Source: Nannocystis bainbridge
GTDB taxonomy: Bacteria > Myxococcota_A > Polyangia > Nannocystales > Nannocystaceae
NCBI RefSeq assembly: GCF_028368995.1
Contig: NZ_JAQNDL010000001.1
Coordinates: 3,424,001 to 3,488,000, forward strand
DNA: 64,000 bases
Direction of reading: 5' to 3'
Made by a program: the position numbers and the translations under genes. Positions 42,733 through 51,329 of this stretch are shown piece after piece; position 1 is the stretch's first letter; each line of letters opens with the position of its first letter. The notes beneath the pieces were generated by a model that saw only the letters and a list, made by a program, of their open reading frames with translations, was not told where the DNA came from and did no database searches.

Positions 42733-43701
42733 ATGCCGCGCTACCTCGTCACCGCCGATCCGGTCGCCAGCTTCCAGCCGCGCTTCGATACGACGTTGCG
42801 CCTCATGGCCGAGCTGCTGGCCCGCGGCGTCGAGGTCGACTACTGCGACCTGTTCACGACCGACATGTCCCTCGGGACAGATGATTGGCTCGCCGCCCTG
42901 CCGGTCCGTTCGGTGCTGTGGAGCGACCCCTCACGCCCCCCGTACGTCGGCCTCGACGCCCCGCGCAGCGCCGCCGCGCTCGACTACGAGGTCCTCGTCC
43001 ACCGCAAGGACCCGCCGGTCGACGCGACCTACCGCGGCTGGGCCGAGCGGTTCGCGGCGCTCGACGGGCGGCTGCTGCAGCTCAACGAGCCGGCCGAGGT
43101 GCTGCGGCACTCCGAGCACCTGCTGCCGGCGCGCTTCCCCGAATTCTCGATCCCGACCTTCCACTGCCGCGAGTTCGGCGAATTCGCGGCGACCGTGCGC
43201 AGCCAGCCGGTCGAGGCCGTGGTCAAGCCGATCGCCGAGTGCAGCGGGATCGGCATCGCCTTCTTCCGCCCCGACGCGTCCGAACCTGTCCTTCGGGGCT
43301 GGTGGCAACAATACGGCGAGGCCGTGGTGCAGCCGTATCAGGAGGCCGTCACCACCCGCGGCGACCTGCGGATCTTGACCATCGGCCGGCGGATCCTCGG
43401 CAGCGTCACCCGGCTCCCGCGCCCGGGCTCGCGGCTCGCCAACCTCCACCAGGGCGCGTCGTACCACGCGTTCGACCCGACCCCGCGCCAGCTCGAGGCG
43501 GTGGCCGCGGTCACCGCCGAGCTGGTGCCTCGCGGCCTCTACCTGCTCGGCCTCGACTTCATCGGCGACCTGCTGTCCGAGGTCAACTTCACCAGCCCCT
43601 CGGCGATGGTCCAGATCGGCGAGGTCATGCACAAGCGCCCCGAGGTCGAGCTCGTCGACGAGATCGAGGCGCTCCGCCGCACCTTCGTCGCGCGCCCCTG
43701 A
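42733..43701 (+). CDS. gshB: Glutathione synthetase-like ATP-grasp ligase
   Basis: DTT, RKDPP, KP..C.G.GI, GD.RI, ANL..G and GLDFIG..LSEVN.TSP motifs. Confidence 0.75.
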   Translation: MPRYLVTADPVASFQPRFDTTLRLMAELLARGVEVDYCDLFTTDMSLGTDDWLAALPVRSVLWSDPSRPPYVGLDAPRSAAALDYEVLVHRKDPPVDATYRGWAERFAALDGRLLQLNEPAEVLRHSEHLLPARFPEFSIPTFHCREFGEFAATVRSQPVEAVVKPIAECSGIGIAFFRPDASEPVLRGWWQQYGEAVVQPYQEAVTTRGDLRILTIGRRILGSVTRLPRPGSRLANLHQGASYHAFDPTPRQLEAVAAVTAELVPRGLYLLGLDFIGDLLSEVNFTSPSAMVQIGEVMHKRPEVELVDEIEALRRTFVARP

Positions 43702-44408: not shown

Positions 44409-45014
44409 TCATCCGTCGACGATCACGCCGAGCGAGGCACAGCGCGCGGCGTCGACGAAGATCAGCCCGTCGTCCTCATGCGGCGCGGCGCCGGGGGTGG
44501 TCGGCTGCTCACCCCCGCCTTCATCAGGCGTGGCCCCACCGCCGGGTTCGGTCGGCTGACCGCCGGGTTCGGTCGGCTCGGTGCCGGGCTTGGCCGGCTT
44601 TTTGCCCGGCTTCTTGCCCGGCTTGAAGCGCGTCGCGCAGAACGTCGCGCCGTCGTCGATGCACGCGCTGCGACACACGGCCACATCGTCGGCGGCGCGG
44701 TCGCAGGCCGCGAGGCAGACGTCGCCGATCTGCAGCTCGCAGGCGTTCTCCTCGGCCAGCGCCCGGGCCGTCGCGCAGAAGTCGAGCTCGACCTCCGCGG
44801 ACTCCCGCGATTCACCCCCGGGCTCGCCCGCGCCGGGCTCTTCGCCGGGCTGCTCTCCGGGCTTCTCGCCGGGCTTCTCTCCGGGCTTCTTGCCCGGCTT
44901 CTTGCCGGGCTTGAACGCGGACTCCTCGACCTGCGTGGTCAGCGGTTTCGCGGCAGCGACGATCGGCAGTGCGAGCGCGGCCGCAGGGAACAACACGAGC
45001 AAATGACGCATCAT
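44409..45014 (-). CDS. Secreted 8-Cys family protein, paralog A (KPG/EPG-rich loops)
   Basis: Signal peptide, C-x7-C-x3-C-x9-C-x3-C-x7-C core, IFVD...C tail, SD AAGGA. Confidence 0.8.
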   Translation of the reverse strand: MMRHLLVLFPAAALALPIVAAAKPLTTQVEESAFKPGKKPGKKPGEKPGEKPGEQPGEEPGAGEPGGESRESAEVELDFCATARALAEENACELQIGDVCLAACDRAADDVAVCRSACIDDGATFCATRFKPGKKPGKKPAKPGTEPTEPGGQPTEPGGGATPDEGGGEQPTTPGAAPHEDDGLIFVDAARCASLGVIVDG

Positions 45015-45639
45015 GGGAGGGTTCCTTTCACGTGAGGCGCAGCGACAGGCCAATCCTGTACGCGCGCTCGAGTGAAGATCTTGGGAGGACGGCAGGAGTA
45101 TGCAATCGCACCGAGCGACGTTAGTCGCCGTGGTGCAGCGCTGCAGCCGAGCGCGCCGGCGGTCGTCCACGTGCGCGGGTGAACACCGAAGCACGACGGA
45201 CGGGCGAGCGCCGCTGCCTGCCGCGAACGGGCGACAGGCGGGCCTCGCGGCCACTCCCACGATTTCCTGCCGATGCTGCTCCGGCGATCGAGCAGATCGC
45301 GAGCGAGCGAGCATGCCACGCGTGGCGATCGCGGAGTCACCCGCGCAGCCCGACCTGGCCCTGCGATTCAGCGGTCCTCGCCGTCGCCCGCGCCGTCCCC
45401 GGCGCAGCCCGACCCGCGGGTCTCCTGCGATTCGCCGGCTCGCCGTCGTCGCGCTCGTCGCTTGCATGCCAGGCGCCGCGCGTCATAGCTCGAAGTGTCG
45501 GACGCACGCCGGACGCGTCGGCCATGTCTCGACTGGCCGAAGCGACCGCGTACGCCCGGTCGTTCTCGTCGTGTTCCTTCGCAATGGCCGCGCCGATCTC
45601 TCGGCGGCGCGTGCCTCGCCCGACGGGGCGCTGAACGAG

Positions 45640-45703
45640 CGTCTCCGCCGCCTGCTGCCTGACGCACCCTCCCAGACGGCCAGGCAGACAGGCGGCGGAG
45701 ACG
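45640..45703 (-). ncRNA. Conserved hairpin RNA element, copy 1
   Basis: 22-bp stem with one bulge; loop GCCGUCUGGGAGGGUGCGU on the minus strand. Strand inferred from G-U pairs. Confidence 0.6.
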
Positions 45704-45867
45704 ACCTTTTTCGTGCGCGGCAGGCCGTGCACACGCCTCTGTGCGAGAGGCCGGCCTACCGCGGGCGGGCGCTCATCGCCCCGCCTCGCTCATCCTCCGG
45801 CGCGAGGGCCCGCGCGTCGCCCGGTGCGGCGGCACCGTTCGCCACGGCATCCCTCGTCCCGGTCTGC

Positions 45868-46338
45868 TCACAGCTCCGAGAGCGCGAGCTCGAGACAGGT
45901 CGAAGTGTCGATGAAGATCGCCTGTTCGTCGAAATCGGGCCGCTGGTGGTCGAAGTCGTCGTCGTCGTCGTTCCAGCCGCCCCAGCGGGTCTTCAGGTCG
46001 CTGGGCGCGCAGAACATCGCGCCCTCGCCGTCGCACTGCGAACGGCAGGTCTGACCGGCGTCGCCGGCGTGGTCGTCGCAGGCCGCGAGGCAGCTCGGGC
46101 CGGACAGCGAGTCGCAATCGTAGGCCCGGTTGTCCTGGCCGGTCTGCACGAAGATCTGGGTCTGCGTGCACACGGCAAGCAGCAGGTCCTCGCCGATATC
46201 GCAGTTGTTACCACCGCCCCAGCACCACCCCACCGGCTCGGCGGGGATGGAGAGCGGGCGAGCCATCGACGGCGTGGCCGCGATGAACGGCAGGGCGAAC
46301 GCCAGAGCGGGGCACAGCAACAGAATCTTGCGCAACAT
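45868..46338 (-). CDS. Secreted 8-Cys family protein, paralog B (Asp-rich loop)
   Basis: Signal peptide, conserved Cys core, IFIDTSTC tail. Confidence 0.85.
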   Translation of the reverse strand: MLRKILLLCPALAFALPFIAATPSMARPLSIPAEPVGWCWGGGNNCDIGEDLLLAVCTQTQIFVQTGQDNRAYDCDSLSGPSCLAACDDHAGDAGQTCRSQCDGEGAMFCAPSDLKTRWGGWNDDDDDFDHQRPDFDEQAIFIDTSTCLELALSEL

Positions 46339-47620
46339 GGAGATTTCCTTTCGTTTCTCTCGGATCGCCGCGGGTTCTTCCCCGCGACGGTTGGAATATT
46401 CAGTGACCCCCCAACAGGCGCAACGGTGAATTGTGGTGAATCGCATCGCCGAGCCCGGCGCCAACTGTCCCAATGGGGGCCGCAGGGCGGCTCAGACCGG
46501 CAAATTCGCCCAAATTCGTGGTTCTGCGCGGAGCTACGGCGCCAGCGGCGATCCTGATGATTCACCGACCGATCGTCACCGCAATTCGCCGTCGCCCGCC
46601 GCGCTCTGCATTGCTCATAGCATCCTCGCGGGCCTGACGAGGCCGGCGCGTCTCGGCGCAATCCTACAAGTGCATATCATCATTGATGAAGCGACGCGGC
46701 CGCGGCGACCTACAGGAGGGCGCCGCGCACCGATCGGCGGACGAAGGCTCGCGGCAGCGACCAATGTTATACATGGCATGCTATCGCATGACAAGTCGCA
46801 GCGAATGCCACGTGTCCCTGCGGCCGCCCGAGCCCGCGACCGGGCCGCCCGCCTCACTGCGTCGATGATGCTTTTTAAAAGGGGGGACATGCCCGATGAG
46901 ACACCATGACGATTCGCGCCGCGAGCCGGCCCCGCCGTCCCGCAGCGACGCAGAGTCGGCCGCGCTCCCCCGCTCCTCGGCGCTGCCCGCCCGCCCGTCC
47001 GGCCGCAGCTCCGGCCGGGCGCGACGAACGGAGCCACGACGGGGATGCAGCTCCGCCACGCCGGTGCTCTGCTGGAGAGCCGCGCCCGAGCTTGCCGATC
47101 CCGCAGAGGCTGCGACCAGGCGCCGCTCCGACGACCTCCGAGCGCGGCACCGTCGCCGCGGACCTGCGCTTCACCGCGGCGCGTCGTCCGACCCGCCGAT
47201 GGCGCCACGAGGATCCGAGCCGGGACGCCGGGGCAGATCGCCGCCACGTCGAAGCTCGCGCCCCCGGACGCGATGCGGGTGCCGCGAACGCAAAGCATCG
47301 CTCGCGGCGCCCCCCGGAGCCGGTTGCGCTCCGCGTCGCAGCGACCCGAGCGATGCCCTCTTTCGCGGTGCTCCGCCCTCGTCCCCCCGGGAGCTTGCAC
47401 CCCGGTGGTGAAGACGTATAGCAAGGAGGTGTCGGATACACGCCTCCTCGCGGAGACCCACGGCTCCTCGGCCCGCACACCGGCGAGCCCTGTCGTCACC
47501 GCCCGAGCGACCGACACCCTCTACGAGCATTCAATTTTTTCTGACTGACCAATAGCAGCAGCATTTGGGCAGCGTCGAACTCTCGGCGACGCGTGCCTCG
47601 CCCGGCGGGGCGACCGCGAG

Positions 47621-47685
47621 CGTCTCCGCCGCCTGCTCCCTGACGCACCCTCCCAGACGGCCAGGCGAGACAGGCGGCGGAGACG
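47621..47685 (-). ncRNA. Conserved hairpin RNA element, copy 2
   Basis: Loop identical to copy 1; compensatory CTG/CAG to CTC/GAG change in the stem. Confidence 0.6.
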
Positions 47686-47860
47686 ACCCTTCTTCAATTT
47701 CGGCGGGCCGATGCACAGGCCTCTGCGCGCTGCAGAGGCGGCCCGCCGCGGCCGGGGCTGTCAGCCCCGCGCCCCTTCGTCGCGCCTTGGCGCCCCGATC
47801 GTCTGCAACCCCCGGCGCGGCGACGCCGAGCGCGGCAGCTTCGATGGGGCCCGCGCGCGT

Positions 47861-48325
47861 TCACCGTTGGTCGAGGTTGAGCTCGAGGCAGGTCTCGGTG
47901 TTGATGAAGATCATGTCGTCCTGATCCTGGTGGTGGTTGTCGTCGTCGTCGTCGTCGTCGTCCCAGCCGCCCCAGCGCGCCTTGAGGTCGCCGGGCGCGC
48001 AGAACAGCGCGCCGTCGCCGTCGCAGTGGCTGCGGCAGGTCTCGCCGGCGTCACCGGCCGCGGCGCAGCTGGCGAGGCAGGTCGGACCGGTCAGCGTGTC
48101 GCACTCGTAAGCGCGGTTGTCCTGGCCGGTCTGGACGAAGATCTGGGTCTGCACGCACACCGCGAGCACCAGGTCGTCGTCGAAATCTCCGCAGTCGTTG
48201 CCGCCCCAGCACCACTCCGCCGGCTGGGCGGGGATCGAAAGCGGGCGCGCCATCGAGGTCCCGGCCGCGACGAGCGGCAAGGCGAACGCGAGAACGGGGC
48301 AGAGCATCAAGATCTTGCGAAACAT
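47861..48325 (-). CDS. Secreted 8-Cys family protein, paralog C (poly-Asp loop)
   Basis: Signal peptide, conserved Cys core, IFINTETC tail, SD AGGAGG. Confidence 0.85.
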   Translation of the reverse strand: MFRKILMLCPVLAFALPLVAAGTSMARPLSIPAQPAEWCWGGNDCGDFDDDLVLAVCVQTQIFVQTGQDNRAYECDTLTGPTCLASCAAAGDAGETCRSHCDGDGALFCAPGDLKARWGGWDDDDDDDDNHHQDQDDMIFINTETCLELNLDQR

Positions 48326-49002
48326 GGGAGTCCTCCTCCTGTCGGTCTCAGCGCGCTTCACGAGCACATTCCCGTGGCGCGTCGATGGGGAATATTCGGT
48401 GTCCCCGCGCGCCGGGCAATGCGGAGCTGTGGTGAGTCGCATCGTCAGCCGCGATCGGGTTCGCCTGTTTCTTCTGACAGAGGGCAGCAGAGGCCCCAAC
48501 GCGGGACGATCTGGCAAATTTACCCGCCCATCGGCGCCCGCGGCGAAATCTCGACGGAATCATCGCGGGATGCGACGCCGCCCGCCGCGCGAGCGACGAA
48601 TCATCGGACTTCGCGCCCTGCGGCGATTTCGACGCCTCACGCAATTGTCCGTCATCGTTGACGATGCGACGCGGCCGCGGCGGCGCGCCCGGAGGCTGCC
48701 GCGCACGGCGATCGCGGGGCGACCCCGGCGGCGACGCTGGGTTCCGGCCGTCTCGCGTCGCAGGTGGCATTCACGACGACATTCGTGGCATTCTCGGGCC
48801 GCGGTCGTCGCCTTTGAAGCTTTCACCCGCGCCCGGGCCGCCCGCCGCTGCGCCCGGCTGGCCTGATGCTCCCGGCGCCACGCGCCGAATCATCGCCCGG
48901 CTCGCCGCCCCGTTCAATCATCGGTGCGAGCCATCAGCGACCGTGCTGTATGATCGGCGGGAAGGCCCCAATCTTCGAAATCGATTCGCACCGCGAAAAT
49001 GG

Positions 49003-49057
49003 CTCCGCCGCCCGTTCTGACGCACCCCTCCCAGGACGGCCAGAACGGACGGCGGAG
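49003..49057 (-). ncRNA. Conserved hairpin RNA element, copy 3
   Basis: Inner stem has different sequence (CCGTTCTG/CAGAACGG) but still pairs; loop nearly identical to copies 1 and 2. Confidence 0.6.
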
Positions 49058-49174: not shown

Positions 49175-49690
49175 TCACCCCTGCAGGTCGAGCTGCAGAC
49201 AGGTCGAGGTGTCGATGAAGATGAGCTCTTCGTCGATGTCGCCGATGCCGGGACGGTCGTCCCACGGGCCGATGCCGGGGCGGTTGCCGCCCCACGGGCC
49301 GAAGCCGCCCCAGCCGCCCAGGCCGCCCCAGCGGGCCGTGAGCTCGCTCGGCGCGCAGAACAGGGCACCGCCGTCGTCACACTGGCTGCGGCACGTGTCG
49401 CCCTCGATCTCGTCGGCGCATTGCGCGAGACAGAACGGGCCGGTCAGGGTGTCGCAATCGTAGGCGCGGTTGTTGGAGCCGGTGCCGACGAAGATCTGGG
49501 TCTGCGTGCATACCTGCAGCAGCAGGGCGCTGTCGAGGCCCTGGTTCCACGCGCCCTGGTCCGGGCGGCTGGGACCGAACTGACCCCCGCCCTGGGCCGG
49601 CTCCGAGGGGGCGACCAGCGGGCGCGCCATGGCCGGAGTGACCGCGAGGGACGACAGGACCGAACAAACCATCAGGATATTGCGAATCAT
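49175..49690 (-). CDS. Secreted 8-Cys family protein, paralog D (Gly/Trp-rich loop)
   Basis: Signal peptide ending AMA, conserved Cys core, IFIDTSTC tail. Confidence 0.85.
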   Translation of the reverse strand: MIRNILMVCSVLSSLAVTPAMARPLVAPSEPAQGGGQFGPSRPDQGAWNQGLDSALLLQVCTQTQIFVGTGSNNRAYDCDTLTGPFCLAQCADEIEGDTCRSQCDDGGALFCAPSELTARWGGLGGWGGFGPWGGNRPGIGPWDDRPGIGDIDEELIFIDTSTCLQLDLQG

Positions 49691-50852
49691 TGGGGAGTTC
49701 CTTTCTTCTCTGCTCTCGGGCGCGACGTGGGAGGATTCCCCCGTCGTGCTGTGTAGGAATATTCAGCCGCCCCAGAACGTGGGCAATGTCGAGTTGTGGC
49801 CCGGCGCATACCCGACGTCCCGCCAAACTGCCGGCGACGCGGGATTGCGGCGGCGCAGACCCGCGAATTCGCGGCCGCGTCGAGCCCCGGCCGGAACGCG
49901 GCGGGAGCGGCGTCGGCGGCCGTTTGGCGGTGTTCGTGGGCAAATATCGCCGCCGCCCGCCGCGCTCCTACATTGCTCATACCGTGTCACCCCGATCCGG
50001 CAATATCGAGGCCGCCGACCCGCTCGCACAAACAGGTATCTTCATTGACTGTGCGGCGCGGTCGCGGCGGCCTGCGGAGGGCTCCGCGCACCCACGAGTG
50101 GATTCCGCCCGCCAATAGGGCCTTCTAAAGGGTGGATATGCCATTCAACCATACAAGTCGCGTCTATCATGACACCGTTGATTTACACCACTGTGGCCGG
50201 GCCGCGCGCGAGCCATCATCACACATGTCCCAAGGGACATTTCATTTTTAAAGAGAAGGGGTGCGCTCGGCGGCGCGGCCACGGCGGTACGAGGCTGTCG
50301 GCGCGACGCTCGACGCGCTCGCGGCGGCTCCGCCCACTCGTTTCACTGGCTCATGCGCGCCCGCTCTGCGCATCGGTGCAGGGCCTCGCAGCGGCTCGGA
50401 CGGACAGGCGCTCGCGTCGTTCGCCCGCGTCATCTGCCCGCGGGGTGGCTCGCCGCTCCGGCCCCGCTGGGGCCCTCGCCGACGCGCACGCTGGCTCTGG
50501 CCGCGCCTCGGCCTCGGCGCACCCGGCAACCATCCTCCGGGCACATCGCCGCCCGGCGCCGCGAGGCCGACGACCGCCTCGCGCCCACCCGCACATGCCC
50601 CTTCGTGCATGTCCGAAAGAACATGCGCACCTAGCGCGGCAGGACTCGCTCGCTCGCCGGGCTCGCCGTCCGCGAACAAGGCCGCCTGGTCGTCCGTGGC
50701 CCGGCGCCCCCGACCGTTCCTCGCTCCTCGGCCGCTTCACGGGCTCTGGCTCGCCAGGCAAATCCCTTCGATGAAACTTGGGGGCCTTCGCCCACTGGCG
50801 CGCGTCCGCCACCCCGCCCATAGTTCCGCCCGCTCCAACAAGGACGATACCG

Positions 50853-51329
50853 ATGTACGCCAGCCCGAGCCACCTGCCCCAAGAAGCACGTCAGAAGATC
50901 GCCGCTGCCCTCCAGGCGGTGCTTGACGATGGCCTCGACCTGCACAGCCAGATCAAGGTCGCCCACTGGAACATCAAGGGCATGCACTTCGCGTCGCTGC
51001 ACCCGCTGTTCGAGACCTTCGCGGTCAGCCTCGCCAACCACAACGACATCGTCGCCGAGCGCGCGGTCACCCTCGGCGCGCAGATCTTCGGCACCGCCCG
51101 CCACGTCGCCAAGAGCTCGCGCCTGCCCGAGTACCCGCAGGACACCACCCGCGACCTCGACCACGTGCGCCTGCTCGCCGAGCGCATCGAGACTTATTTG
51201 TCCGGCCTACAGGGCGCGCGCAAGATCGGCGACCAGCAGCAAGACGTCGACACCGTCGACATGCTGACGGCGATCATCAGCGAGTTCGAGAAGCACGGGT
51301 GGTTCCTCCGCGCCCACCTCGACCGCTGA
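50853..51329 (+). CDS. dps: DNA starvation/stationary-phase protection protein Dps
   Basis: K.AHWNIKG..F..LH.LFE, D.VAER and EK..WFL motifs. Confidence 0.96.
   Translation: MYASPSHLPQEARQKIAAALQAVLDDGLDLHSQIKVAHWNIKGMHFASLHPLFETFAVSLANHNDIVAERAVTLGAQIFGTARHVAKSSRLPEYPQDTTRDLDHVRLLAERIETYLSGLQGARKIGDQQQDVDTVDMLTAIISEFEKHGWFLRAHLDR

Follow-up and report, generated by a model that had tools for sequence, protein, structure and literature searches.

A structured RNA module lies in the untranslated parts at the 3' end (3' UTRs) of three of four tandem paralogs in a 64,000-nucleotide (nt) stretch of Nannocystis bainbridge DNA (contig NZ_JAQNDL010000001.1, positions 3,424,001 to 3,488,000; hereafter the window, within which positions are counted). 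The paralogs A, B, C, and D are on the minus strand, and the long hairpins behind B, C, and D (copies 1, 2, and 3, respectively) are the core of the module, which belongs to the messenger RNAs (mRNAs) of these three genes. An earlier note, made from the letters of the window, had placed the hairpins at 45640-45703, 47621-47685, and 49003-49057, and this is where they were found, the third at approximately 49004-49056. Their distances from the genes were also as described: copy 1 starts 165 nt past the stop of B (at 45868), copy 2 starts 176 nt past that of C (47861), and copy 3 starts 118 nt past that of D (49175). A conserved, structured, gene-strand module associated with one orphan Nannocystis family is new, and the searches reported below show its link to that family to be exclusive.

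Anatomy of the module

Behind B and C, the conserved element outruns the hairpin and spans approximately 125 nt (45586-45711 and 47568-47693), including two extra stem-loops. From about 100 nt past the stop, the order on the mRNA, 5' to 3', is stem-loop SL0, a purine linker, the long hairpin SLc', and then, after a short linker and in copies 1 and 2 only, SLb' and SLa'; the copies behind D consist of SLc' without SLb' or SLa' (Table 1). SLc' is a hairpin of approximately 30 base pairs (bp), with 29 to 31 pairs, one bulge, and one or two 1-nt interruptions. Its apex, invariant in sequence over 26 to 28 nt, comprises a lower helix, a single bulged C, an upper stem of 5 or 6 bp that is rich in G.U pairs, and a GGGA cap that has, as predicted from its letters, the form of a GNRA tetraloop. 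The three hairpins fold on the gene strand with z-scores of -7.45, -5.52, and -4.86 (dinucleotide shuffles, none of 200 as good) and on the plus strand with z-scores of -7.25, -5.20, and -3.05.

Two of the companion helices also vary in a paired manner. In SL0, which is variable in sequence, five of 16 pairs have double-sided changes, and pair 122/138 of SLa' is CG in seven rows and UA in five. The conserved island stops at the base of SLa', and identity is 0.34 at 45552-45591.

Conserved single-stranded positions on the minus strand repeatedly carry the 7-mer CCGAGAG, both in the SLa' loops (45598 and 47580) and in the 5' UTR of B (46357) and that of D (49713). Its four occurrences in 8 kb of gene strand compare with approximately 0.9 expected from its genome-wide frequency; the observation is post hoc, and the recurrence may hint at a factor common to the 3' module and the 5' UTRs.

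Conserved pairing and strand assignment

Nineteen hairpin copies, from six genomes and one metagenome contig, were aligned to the model. Over their 25 pairs, 97.9% of cells were paired, compared with 43 to 55% when partners were slid, and six pairs showed double changes, a number reached by none of 500 shuffles. The 12 full elements, with 46 pairs, gave 97.3% paired cells versus 39 to 53% in slid controls and again six pairs with double changes, also reached in none of 500 shuffles. The sequences are related and partly homogenized, which makes the shuffle counts look more significant than they are; of the two yardsticks, the slid controls are the fairer. Both signs of covariation reported in the earlier note are visible in the alignment, namely the exchange of CUG/CAG for CUC/GAG (columns 40/72) and the replacement of the inner stem in copy 3.

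The same note had argued for the gene strand from the conversion of plus-strand mismatches to G.U pairs, and the counts agree, with 62 G.U versus 4 A.C cells on the gene strand in the full elements (A3) and 76 versus 4 in the hairpins (A2); these cells sit at five or six fixed pair positions and therefore represent five or six observations, not 60. Several substitutions preserve pairing. Two G.U pairs of the apex are replaced by G-C and A-U in the isolated paralog copy of G001; in G003, a C-G pair has become U.G and the bulged C a U; and one stem position runs through U.G, C-G, and U-A. The extra C and extra G of copy 3, present as described previously, pair with each other, so that the upper stem grows from 5 to 6 bp and the GGGA loop is kept. 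At the level of sequence comparison, the G.U versus A.C counts and these substitutions together show the module to be on the gene (minus) strand. They also modify the view of the apex as a loop: its sequence reads as claimed, but on the gene strand it is mostly paired, as a G.U-rich upper stem with a bulged C that leaves only the GGGA tetraloop open.

Distribution and conservation

The motif occurs exactly three times in the 11-Mb genome (71% G+C), always in the array and never scattered, and BLAST of hairpin 1 against its own genome returned copies 1 and 2 and short chance matches only. A covariance model (CM) built from 16 copies and run over 61 genomes of the bacterial family gave 15 strong gene-strand hits (E values of 1e-10 to 1e-21) in G000, G001, G003, G005, and G010. 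All 15 lie 116 to 320 nt downstream of a gene of the protein family, on the same strand, and none lies elsewhere; one is behind an isolated paralog distant from the array (G001 C1:8290250). The tie to this gene family proposed in the earlier note therefore withstood both searches. The remaining 10 listed hits were the opposite strands of the same loci (31 to 36 bits) and one marginal match (E value of 0.01) in another genus. In a species-representative genome collection, the exact apex pattern was found in Nannocystis records only (N. exedens, N. punicea, N. pusilla, and Nannocystis sp.), and a metagenome scan with the apex pattern found one contig (L134), on which a family gene is followed, approximately 185 nt behind its stop, by SLc' with a different distal helix.

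The protein family itself is present in five of 10 other genomes of the genus and in none of 50 genomes of other genera; the five same-genus genomes lacking it are smaller, less complete assemblies. No Rfam 15 family reached its gathering threshold when 8 kb was searched on both strands with permissive filters, the best scores being chance matches to eukaryotic microRNA models (21 to 22.6 bits versus thresholds of 60 to 90). Literature on myxobacterial, Sorangium, and Nannocystis RNA elements contained nothing on the motif among the matches listed. Two partial matches were rejected. That at C1:3401390 is unrelated sequence, and that at G000 C1:3660328 is an ordinary terminator, with a 12-bp GC stem and a U6 run, whose loop shares 13 nt with the plus-strand apex, which was judged to be chance; U-tailed terminators do, then, occur in the genome.

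Synteny of the array, with all four genes and all three hairpins, extends to four other genomes of the genus (G001, G005, G007, and G010), so the array duplications predate these species. When the whole array was aligned from five species, identity was 0.89 to 0.96 in segments 45592-45711 and 47592-47711, 0.3 to 0.6 in the surrounding intergenic sequence, and 0.7 to 0.9 in coding sequences. The lower stem of hairpin 3 is less conserved (0.59 to 0.82). The only other conserved intergenic islands are the promoter/5'-UTR regions and a palindromic box approximately 340 nt upstream of each start. As judged from this alignment, purifying selection on the module is shown to exceed that on coding sequence, and a neutral duplication relic is excluded because the islands stand far above the identity of the flanking intergenic sequence. 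Copies 1 and 2 of G010 carry a common private, species-specific change, which suggests gene conversion between them.

In G007 (L091 8608-9051 and upstream), frameshifts and a TGA interrupt gene C, and a deletion of approximately 900 nt has removed its promoter; the module behind it is almost whole, apart from an added base and a single C.A mismatch. Element 2 of G007 is 0.96 to 1.00 identical to that of G005, compared with 0.89 to 0.95 in coding sequence and 0.86 to 0.98 in the flanks, and the two genomes are too close for this case to say anything on survival of the element without its gene.

Transcription and 3'-end context

Four soil metatranscriptome runs from three studies contain 5 to 13% of the array words; the data are contigs, which indicate presence without strand, ends, or levels, and the uncovered parts (most of A and the long spacers) were given no weight. 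The contigs cover B, C, and D. Contig starts at 46373-46384 (B) and 49731-49741 (D), 9 to 25 nt downstream of a conserved CTGAATATTCC box, fit separate promoters for these two genes. Contig sequence at 47660-47845 connects hairpin 2 with the C 3' UTR, and two contigs cover element 1 (45565-45717, and 45508-45710 continuing beyond). Contig breaks at 45706-45715 are probably assembly breaks rather than RNA ends, because the repeat common to copies 1 and 2 has its boundary there.

One study reports that the 3' ends of transcripts arising from both factor-independent and Rho-dependent termination are marked by stem-loops (PMC13613805). Each GC-rich hairpin of the module lies downstream of a stop, where the stem of a Rho-independent terminator would be found, and a terminator consensus scan called none of the three. 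The genome contains 685 hairpins with at least 12 perfect bp, versus approximately 250 by a rough chance estimate, and only 88 of the 685 carry a T- or A-run, so that tail-less hairpins are the local norm.

Proposed function

The best explanation of the module, with a probability of roughly 0.45, is that it acts in cis on the stability or the 3' end of the mRNA and that a sequence-specific partner recognizes its invariant apex. It would act on its own mRNA as a barrier to 3'-to-5' exonucleases, as the site where the mature 3' end is made, or as both, and docking of the partner on the apex would tune stability or 3'-end function. The partner would most likely be a protein, for example CsrA at the loop GGA or RNase III on the long helix. 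Genes for both are present in the genome (CsrA with 82.9 bits, above the Pfam cutoff), and SLc' has the length of an RNase III substrate (approximately two helical turns or more), although its cleavage is only predicted.

Several observations weigh against such a function. The partner has to be assumed, because a plain exonuclease barrier needs structure and not an invariant apex of 26 to 28 nt. The metatranscriptome contigs show neither strand nor ends, and two of them extend 21 and 78 nt past SLa', so either termination at the module is not tight or the contigs derive in part from the plus strand or from DNA. No U-tract follows any helix on the gene strand. After SLc' comes CUCGUUCAG, and after SLa' comes mixed sequence in which most copies have 1 to 4 U among 8 nt and one copy has 7. 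Gene A and four dispersed family members in the same genome have no module. Finally, gene conversion inflates the likeness of the paralogous copies, though not the likeness between species.

Start-region pairing and alternative explanations

The earlier note had proposed that the apex pairs with start regions of the array genes and so controls their translation. The CUCC tracts that it reported precede all four AUGs (Table 1), and gene A does carry a perfect 9-nt complement (ACCCUCCCA versus UGGGAGGGU). Duplex energies were ranked over 5039 start regions, a crude set of long open reading frames (ORFs) with strong third-position G+C content (GC3) and starts picked by Shine-Dalgarno (SD) sequence. 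The 33-nt whole-apex query is GC-rich, binds the GC-rich background at a mean of -22.9 kcal/mol, and is uninformative, and the ranking was therefore redone with queries of 11 to 22 nt. With the 11-nt apex, A reached -18.0 kcal/mol and rank 6 of 5039, compared with -11.0 (rank 518) for C, -10.2 (rank 759) for D, and -6.7 (rank 2774) for B, against a background mean of -7.2 kcal/mol and a standard deviation of 2.8; longer queries moved B, C, and D to the lower half. Several unrelated genes rank alongside A, and an A-like paralog, C3:341424, ties with it. This paralog (G000, plus strand) is a dispersed, longer family member (394 amino acids [aa], crude call) with a AACCCUCCC-AUG start region like that of gene A.

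Across species, four of five A orthologs have energies of -14.3 to -18.0 kcal/mol. The CUCC tract is kept in all five orthologs of A and of D, in two of five for B, in one of five for C, and in seven of eight isolated paralogs, while the apex never varies; CUCCCC is the spacer consensus across the family. The caution that C-rich spacers are common in such genomes was not borne out, as only 110 of 5039 regions (2.2%) have CTCC no more than 12 nt from the start, a figure biased low because the set was chosen for a purine-rich SD. The CUCC spacer is a real family trait, but the SD requirement biases the background. The apex opens cheaply, at 3.3 kcal/mol for copies 1 and 2 and 6.8 for copy 3, so pairing is energetically possible. 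The proposed translation control through start-region pairing thus finds only partial support: A stands out, whereas B, C, and D do not rise above ordinary start regions, and most B and C orthologs have lost the tract.

These data bear most directly on a regulatory small RNA (sRNA) derived from the 3' UTR, or a 3'-5' fold-back, in which the SD-like apex would pair with the CUCC(C) spacer and block initiation, so that the paralogs cross-regulate. Such a mechanism is possible but unlikely. The near-top rank of A, its tie with the A-like paralog, the energies of the A orthologs, the rarity of the consensus spacer among the crude starts, and the low opening cost in copies 1 and 2 all speak for it, as does the position of the conserved island at the distal end of the 3' UTR, the usual signature of 3'-UTR-derived sRNAs. 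Against this, B, C, and D rank poorly and worse with longer queries, three of five B and four of five C orthologs lack the tract despite the invariant apex, and non-family genes rank as high as A; moreover, an invariant apex yields no covariation signal for the pairing, the start set is crude, and no Hfq or ProQ gene was found in the 90%-complete assembly. Pairing within one mRNA, as in icaR, would give B, C, and D only -4.4 to -11.2 kcal/mol versus the genome mean of -7.2, and fold-back within B or C is not supported. Action in trans on A, D, and dispersed members is possible. In its most specific form, the module would let one paralog regulate another, either after being cut from the abundant mRNAs of B, C, and D or while acting within them; its GGGAGGG apex, which mimics an SD and opens cheaply, would pair with the CCCUCCC/CUCCCC spacers adjoining the AUG of A, D, and dispersed members. 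We regard this as decidedly doubtful. If true, the expression of one paralog would set the translation of others where neither Hfq nor ProQ is found, and an icaR-like 3'-UTR mechanism would operate with reversed polarity, in trans, within a gene family.

The CsrA-type site offered as an alternative in the earlier note is kept as a candidate, as the CsrA gene is present, but it is improbable as the explanation of the module. Here, the GGA of the apical GGGA loop and the GGA in the family SD (GAAAGGAA) would bind CsrA, and either the mRNAs would be controlled or CsrA would be titrated by abundant 3' UTRs. A GGA does sit in a hairpin loop atop a weak upper stem, and the family SD contains AAGGAA, whereas CsrA binds with high affinity to paired sites separated by a few tens of nt and each element has a single GGA loop approximately 700 nt from the SD. 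In addition, the flanks beyond GGA are unlike the consensus from systematic evolution of ligands by exponential enrichment (SELEX), GGA is a common trinucleotide, and the site is only predicted. A plus-strand sRNA, or a plus-strand or bidirectional terminator with the order SLa, SLb, long hairpin, T-run, is very improbable, and the plus-strand anti-SD sRNA of the earlier note is likewise disfavored by the G.U versus A.C counts. The T-rich tails fit this order, occurring on the plus strand only, after copy 1 in all five species (CCTTTTTCG and like sequences) and more weakly after copy 2, and the first two copies fold well on that strand. However, copy 3 has no T-run, the five or six conserved G.U positions become A.C mismatches, some substitutions keep pairs on the gene strand alone, and the apex would be an invariant 19-nt loop without explanation; the region upstream of it on that strand shows no gene, coding periodicity, or promoter-like site, and conservation drops to 0.34 there. 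A DNA-level palindrome (a protein-binding or recombination site or a repetitive extragenic palindromic [REP] sequence), or a functionless duplication relic kept alike by gene conversion, is hardly plausible. In its favor are the tandem duplication of the whole unit (gene, promoter box, upstream box, and hairpin) and the private change common to copies 1 and 2 of G010, but the array is syntenic in five species with identity of 0.92 to 0.96 in the element versus 0.3 to 0.6 in intergenic sequence, which is not neutral, and the G.U asymmetry points to a single-stranded, gene-strand nucleic acid. The three copies in 11 Mb, none dispersed, are also unlike REP sequences or miniature inverted-repeat transposable elements (MITEs).

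Genes and other features of the array

The proteins encoded by A to D are small and Cys rich, with a signal-peptide-like N terminus. They had no match above curated cutoffs in Pfam or NCBIfam and none in PDB sequences or the ESM Atlas; the best protein-family score was to an NCBIfam Cys-rich lipoprotein model (16.6 bits versus a cutoff of 40). The products of B, C, and D are orphan secreted Cys-rich proteins. GC3 coding periodicity is restricted to the four genes and absent from the spacers of 0.85 to 1.5 kb, which rules out a hidden plus-strand gene needing a terminator in any spacer. A small ORF inside the element was ruled out by 1-nt indels between element copies and by the lack of a start codon after the SD-like runs.

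Gene A, the sole array member without the 3' module, contains 12-nt tandem repeats encoding Lys-Pro-Gly-type repeats that flank a Cys-rich core. A separate, conserved promoter-like box, ATTGC..(approximately 17 nt)..CTGAATATTCC, precedes each of the genes B, C, and D, about 55 to 65 nt upstream of the AUG, and is followed by a 5'-UTR hairpin and the purine-rich SD. The palindromic box (TCATCATTGATGA type) upstream of B, C, and D, approximately 340 nt from their starts, is followed by a GC-rich hairpin and looks like a transcription factor operator. The long spacers ahead of B and D contain unusually AT-rich blocks (TTTTTAAAAGGGG type), which were flagged by the terminator scan on the plus strand. 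The neighbors of the array, a glutathione synthetase gene and a ferritin-like/Dps gene, give this Cys-rich secreted family a redox and iron setting.

Table 1. Window positions of the module, the array genes, and associated sequences
Feature	Position	Strand	Remarks
SLc' copy 1	45640..45703	-	3' UTR of B; 29 paired positions, bulged C, GGGA; CM 95.1 bits; cross-species identity 0.92-0.96
SLb' copy 1	45617..45630	-	5-bp stem-loop CGCCC/GGGCG; nearly invariant in 11/12 full elements
SLa' copy 1	45586..45615	-	Approximately 11-bp stem, loop CCGAGAGAU; CCGAGAGUU in most copies
Purine-rich linker GAAAAAGG (gene strand)	45704..45712	-	Directly 5' of SLc'; T-run on plus strand
SL0 copy 1	45718..45761	-	Between B stop and SLc'; sequence-variable, covarying hairpin
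SLc' copy 2	47621..47685	-	3' UTR of C; CM 97.2 bits; identity 0.96
SLb' + SLa' copy 2	47568..47613	-	From fold and alignment
SL0 copy 2	47701..47748	-	Covarying hairpin
SLc' copy 3	49004..49056	-	3' UTR of D; hairpin alone, extra C-G pair in upper stem, different lower stem; CM 60.3 bits
Paralog A	44409..45014	-	201 aa; no 3' element
Paralog B	45868..46338	-	156 aa; signal peptide, many Cys; no Pfam family
Paralog C	47861..48325	-	154 aa
Paralog D	49175..49690	-	171 aa
A spacer ACCCUCCC	45015-45022	-	Best complement to apex among array
B spacer AUCUCC	46339..46344	-	Before AUG
C spacer ACUCCC	48326..48331	-	Before AUG
D spacer ACUCCCCA	49691..49698	-	Before AUG
Tandem repeats in gene A	44584-44639, 44836-44915		12-nt repeats
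Promoter-like boxes of B, C, D	46393-46403, 48389-48399, 49756-49766	-	Minus-strand sense
Palindromic upstream boxes	46677-46707, 48652-48682, 50039-50069		Approximately 0.8 conserved across species
AT-rich blocks	46859-46895, 50225-50265		Upstream of B and D
Glutathione synthetase gene	42733-43701	+	PF02955 + PF02951
Ferritin-like/Dps gene	50853-51329	+	PF00210

Relation to known systems and significance

The module is like the 3'-end stem-loops of bacterial mRNAs in being a GC-rich gene-strand hairpin past the stop, behind genes with their own promoters, and differs from them in its length (approximately 30 bp), its two or three companion helices, its distance of 116 to 320 nt from the stop, and its restriction to one gene family; the sequence itself, beyond the structure, is also invariant across paralogs and species. 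A tail-less terminator or exonuclease barrier is exemplified by the "positive retroregulator" hairpin behind the Bacillus thuringiensis cry genes. The lambda sib site is a case of RNase III retroregulation, and here too a long hairpin past a gene could admit RNase III, whose gene is present, and set the fate of the mRNA; the module, however, is without an antitermination context, and its cleavage is only predicted. CsrA/RsmA hairpins, by their consensus, share with it a GGA in a hairpin loop, a second GGA in the SD, and a CsrA gene in the genome, whereas the module offers a single apical candidate site on a very long, stable helix, distant from the SD. With iron-responsive-element-like hairpins, which are bound by aconitases, it has in common a lower helix, a bulged C, a 5-bp upper stem, a small loop, and a place in a 3' UTR, but its bulge is on the 3' side and its loop is GGGA rather than CAGUGN, so the likeness is of shape only.

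For icaR in Staphylococcus aureus, pairing between 5' and 3' UTRs is described (PMC3868564). The Nannocystis module likewise has a 3'-UTR motif complementary to an mRNA ribosome-binding region and a long helix that could be an RNase III substrate. The polarity is reversed, the SD-like GGGAGGG being in the 3' UTR and the C-rich tract in the 5' UTR, and only a different paralog (A) offers strong complementarity, which for B and C is not conserved. Among known systems, 3'-end stabilizer hairpins and the icaR 5'-3' UTR interaction come closest, and the module is a member of no described RNA family tested.

To our knowledge, conserved structured cis-elements in bacterial 3' UTRs are few, and almost none come from myxobacteria. 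The module described here has clean comparative support in its covariation, its strand assignment by G.U pairs, its conservation above that of coding sequence, and its exclusive link to one family, and the covariance model could be submitted to Rfam. If the apex does pair with paralog start regions, the array would be an example of intrafamily cross talk through 3' UTRs. The mRNAs of the family are abundant enough to show in soil metatranscriptomes, and the module is a ready subject for work on mRNA stability, 3'-end formation, and protein-RNA recognition in Nannocystis.

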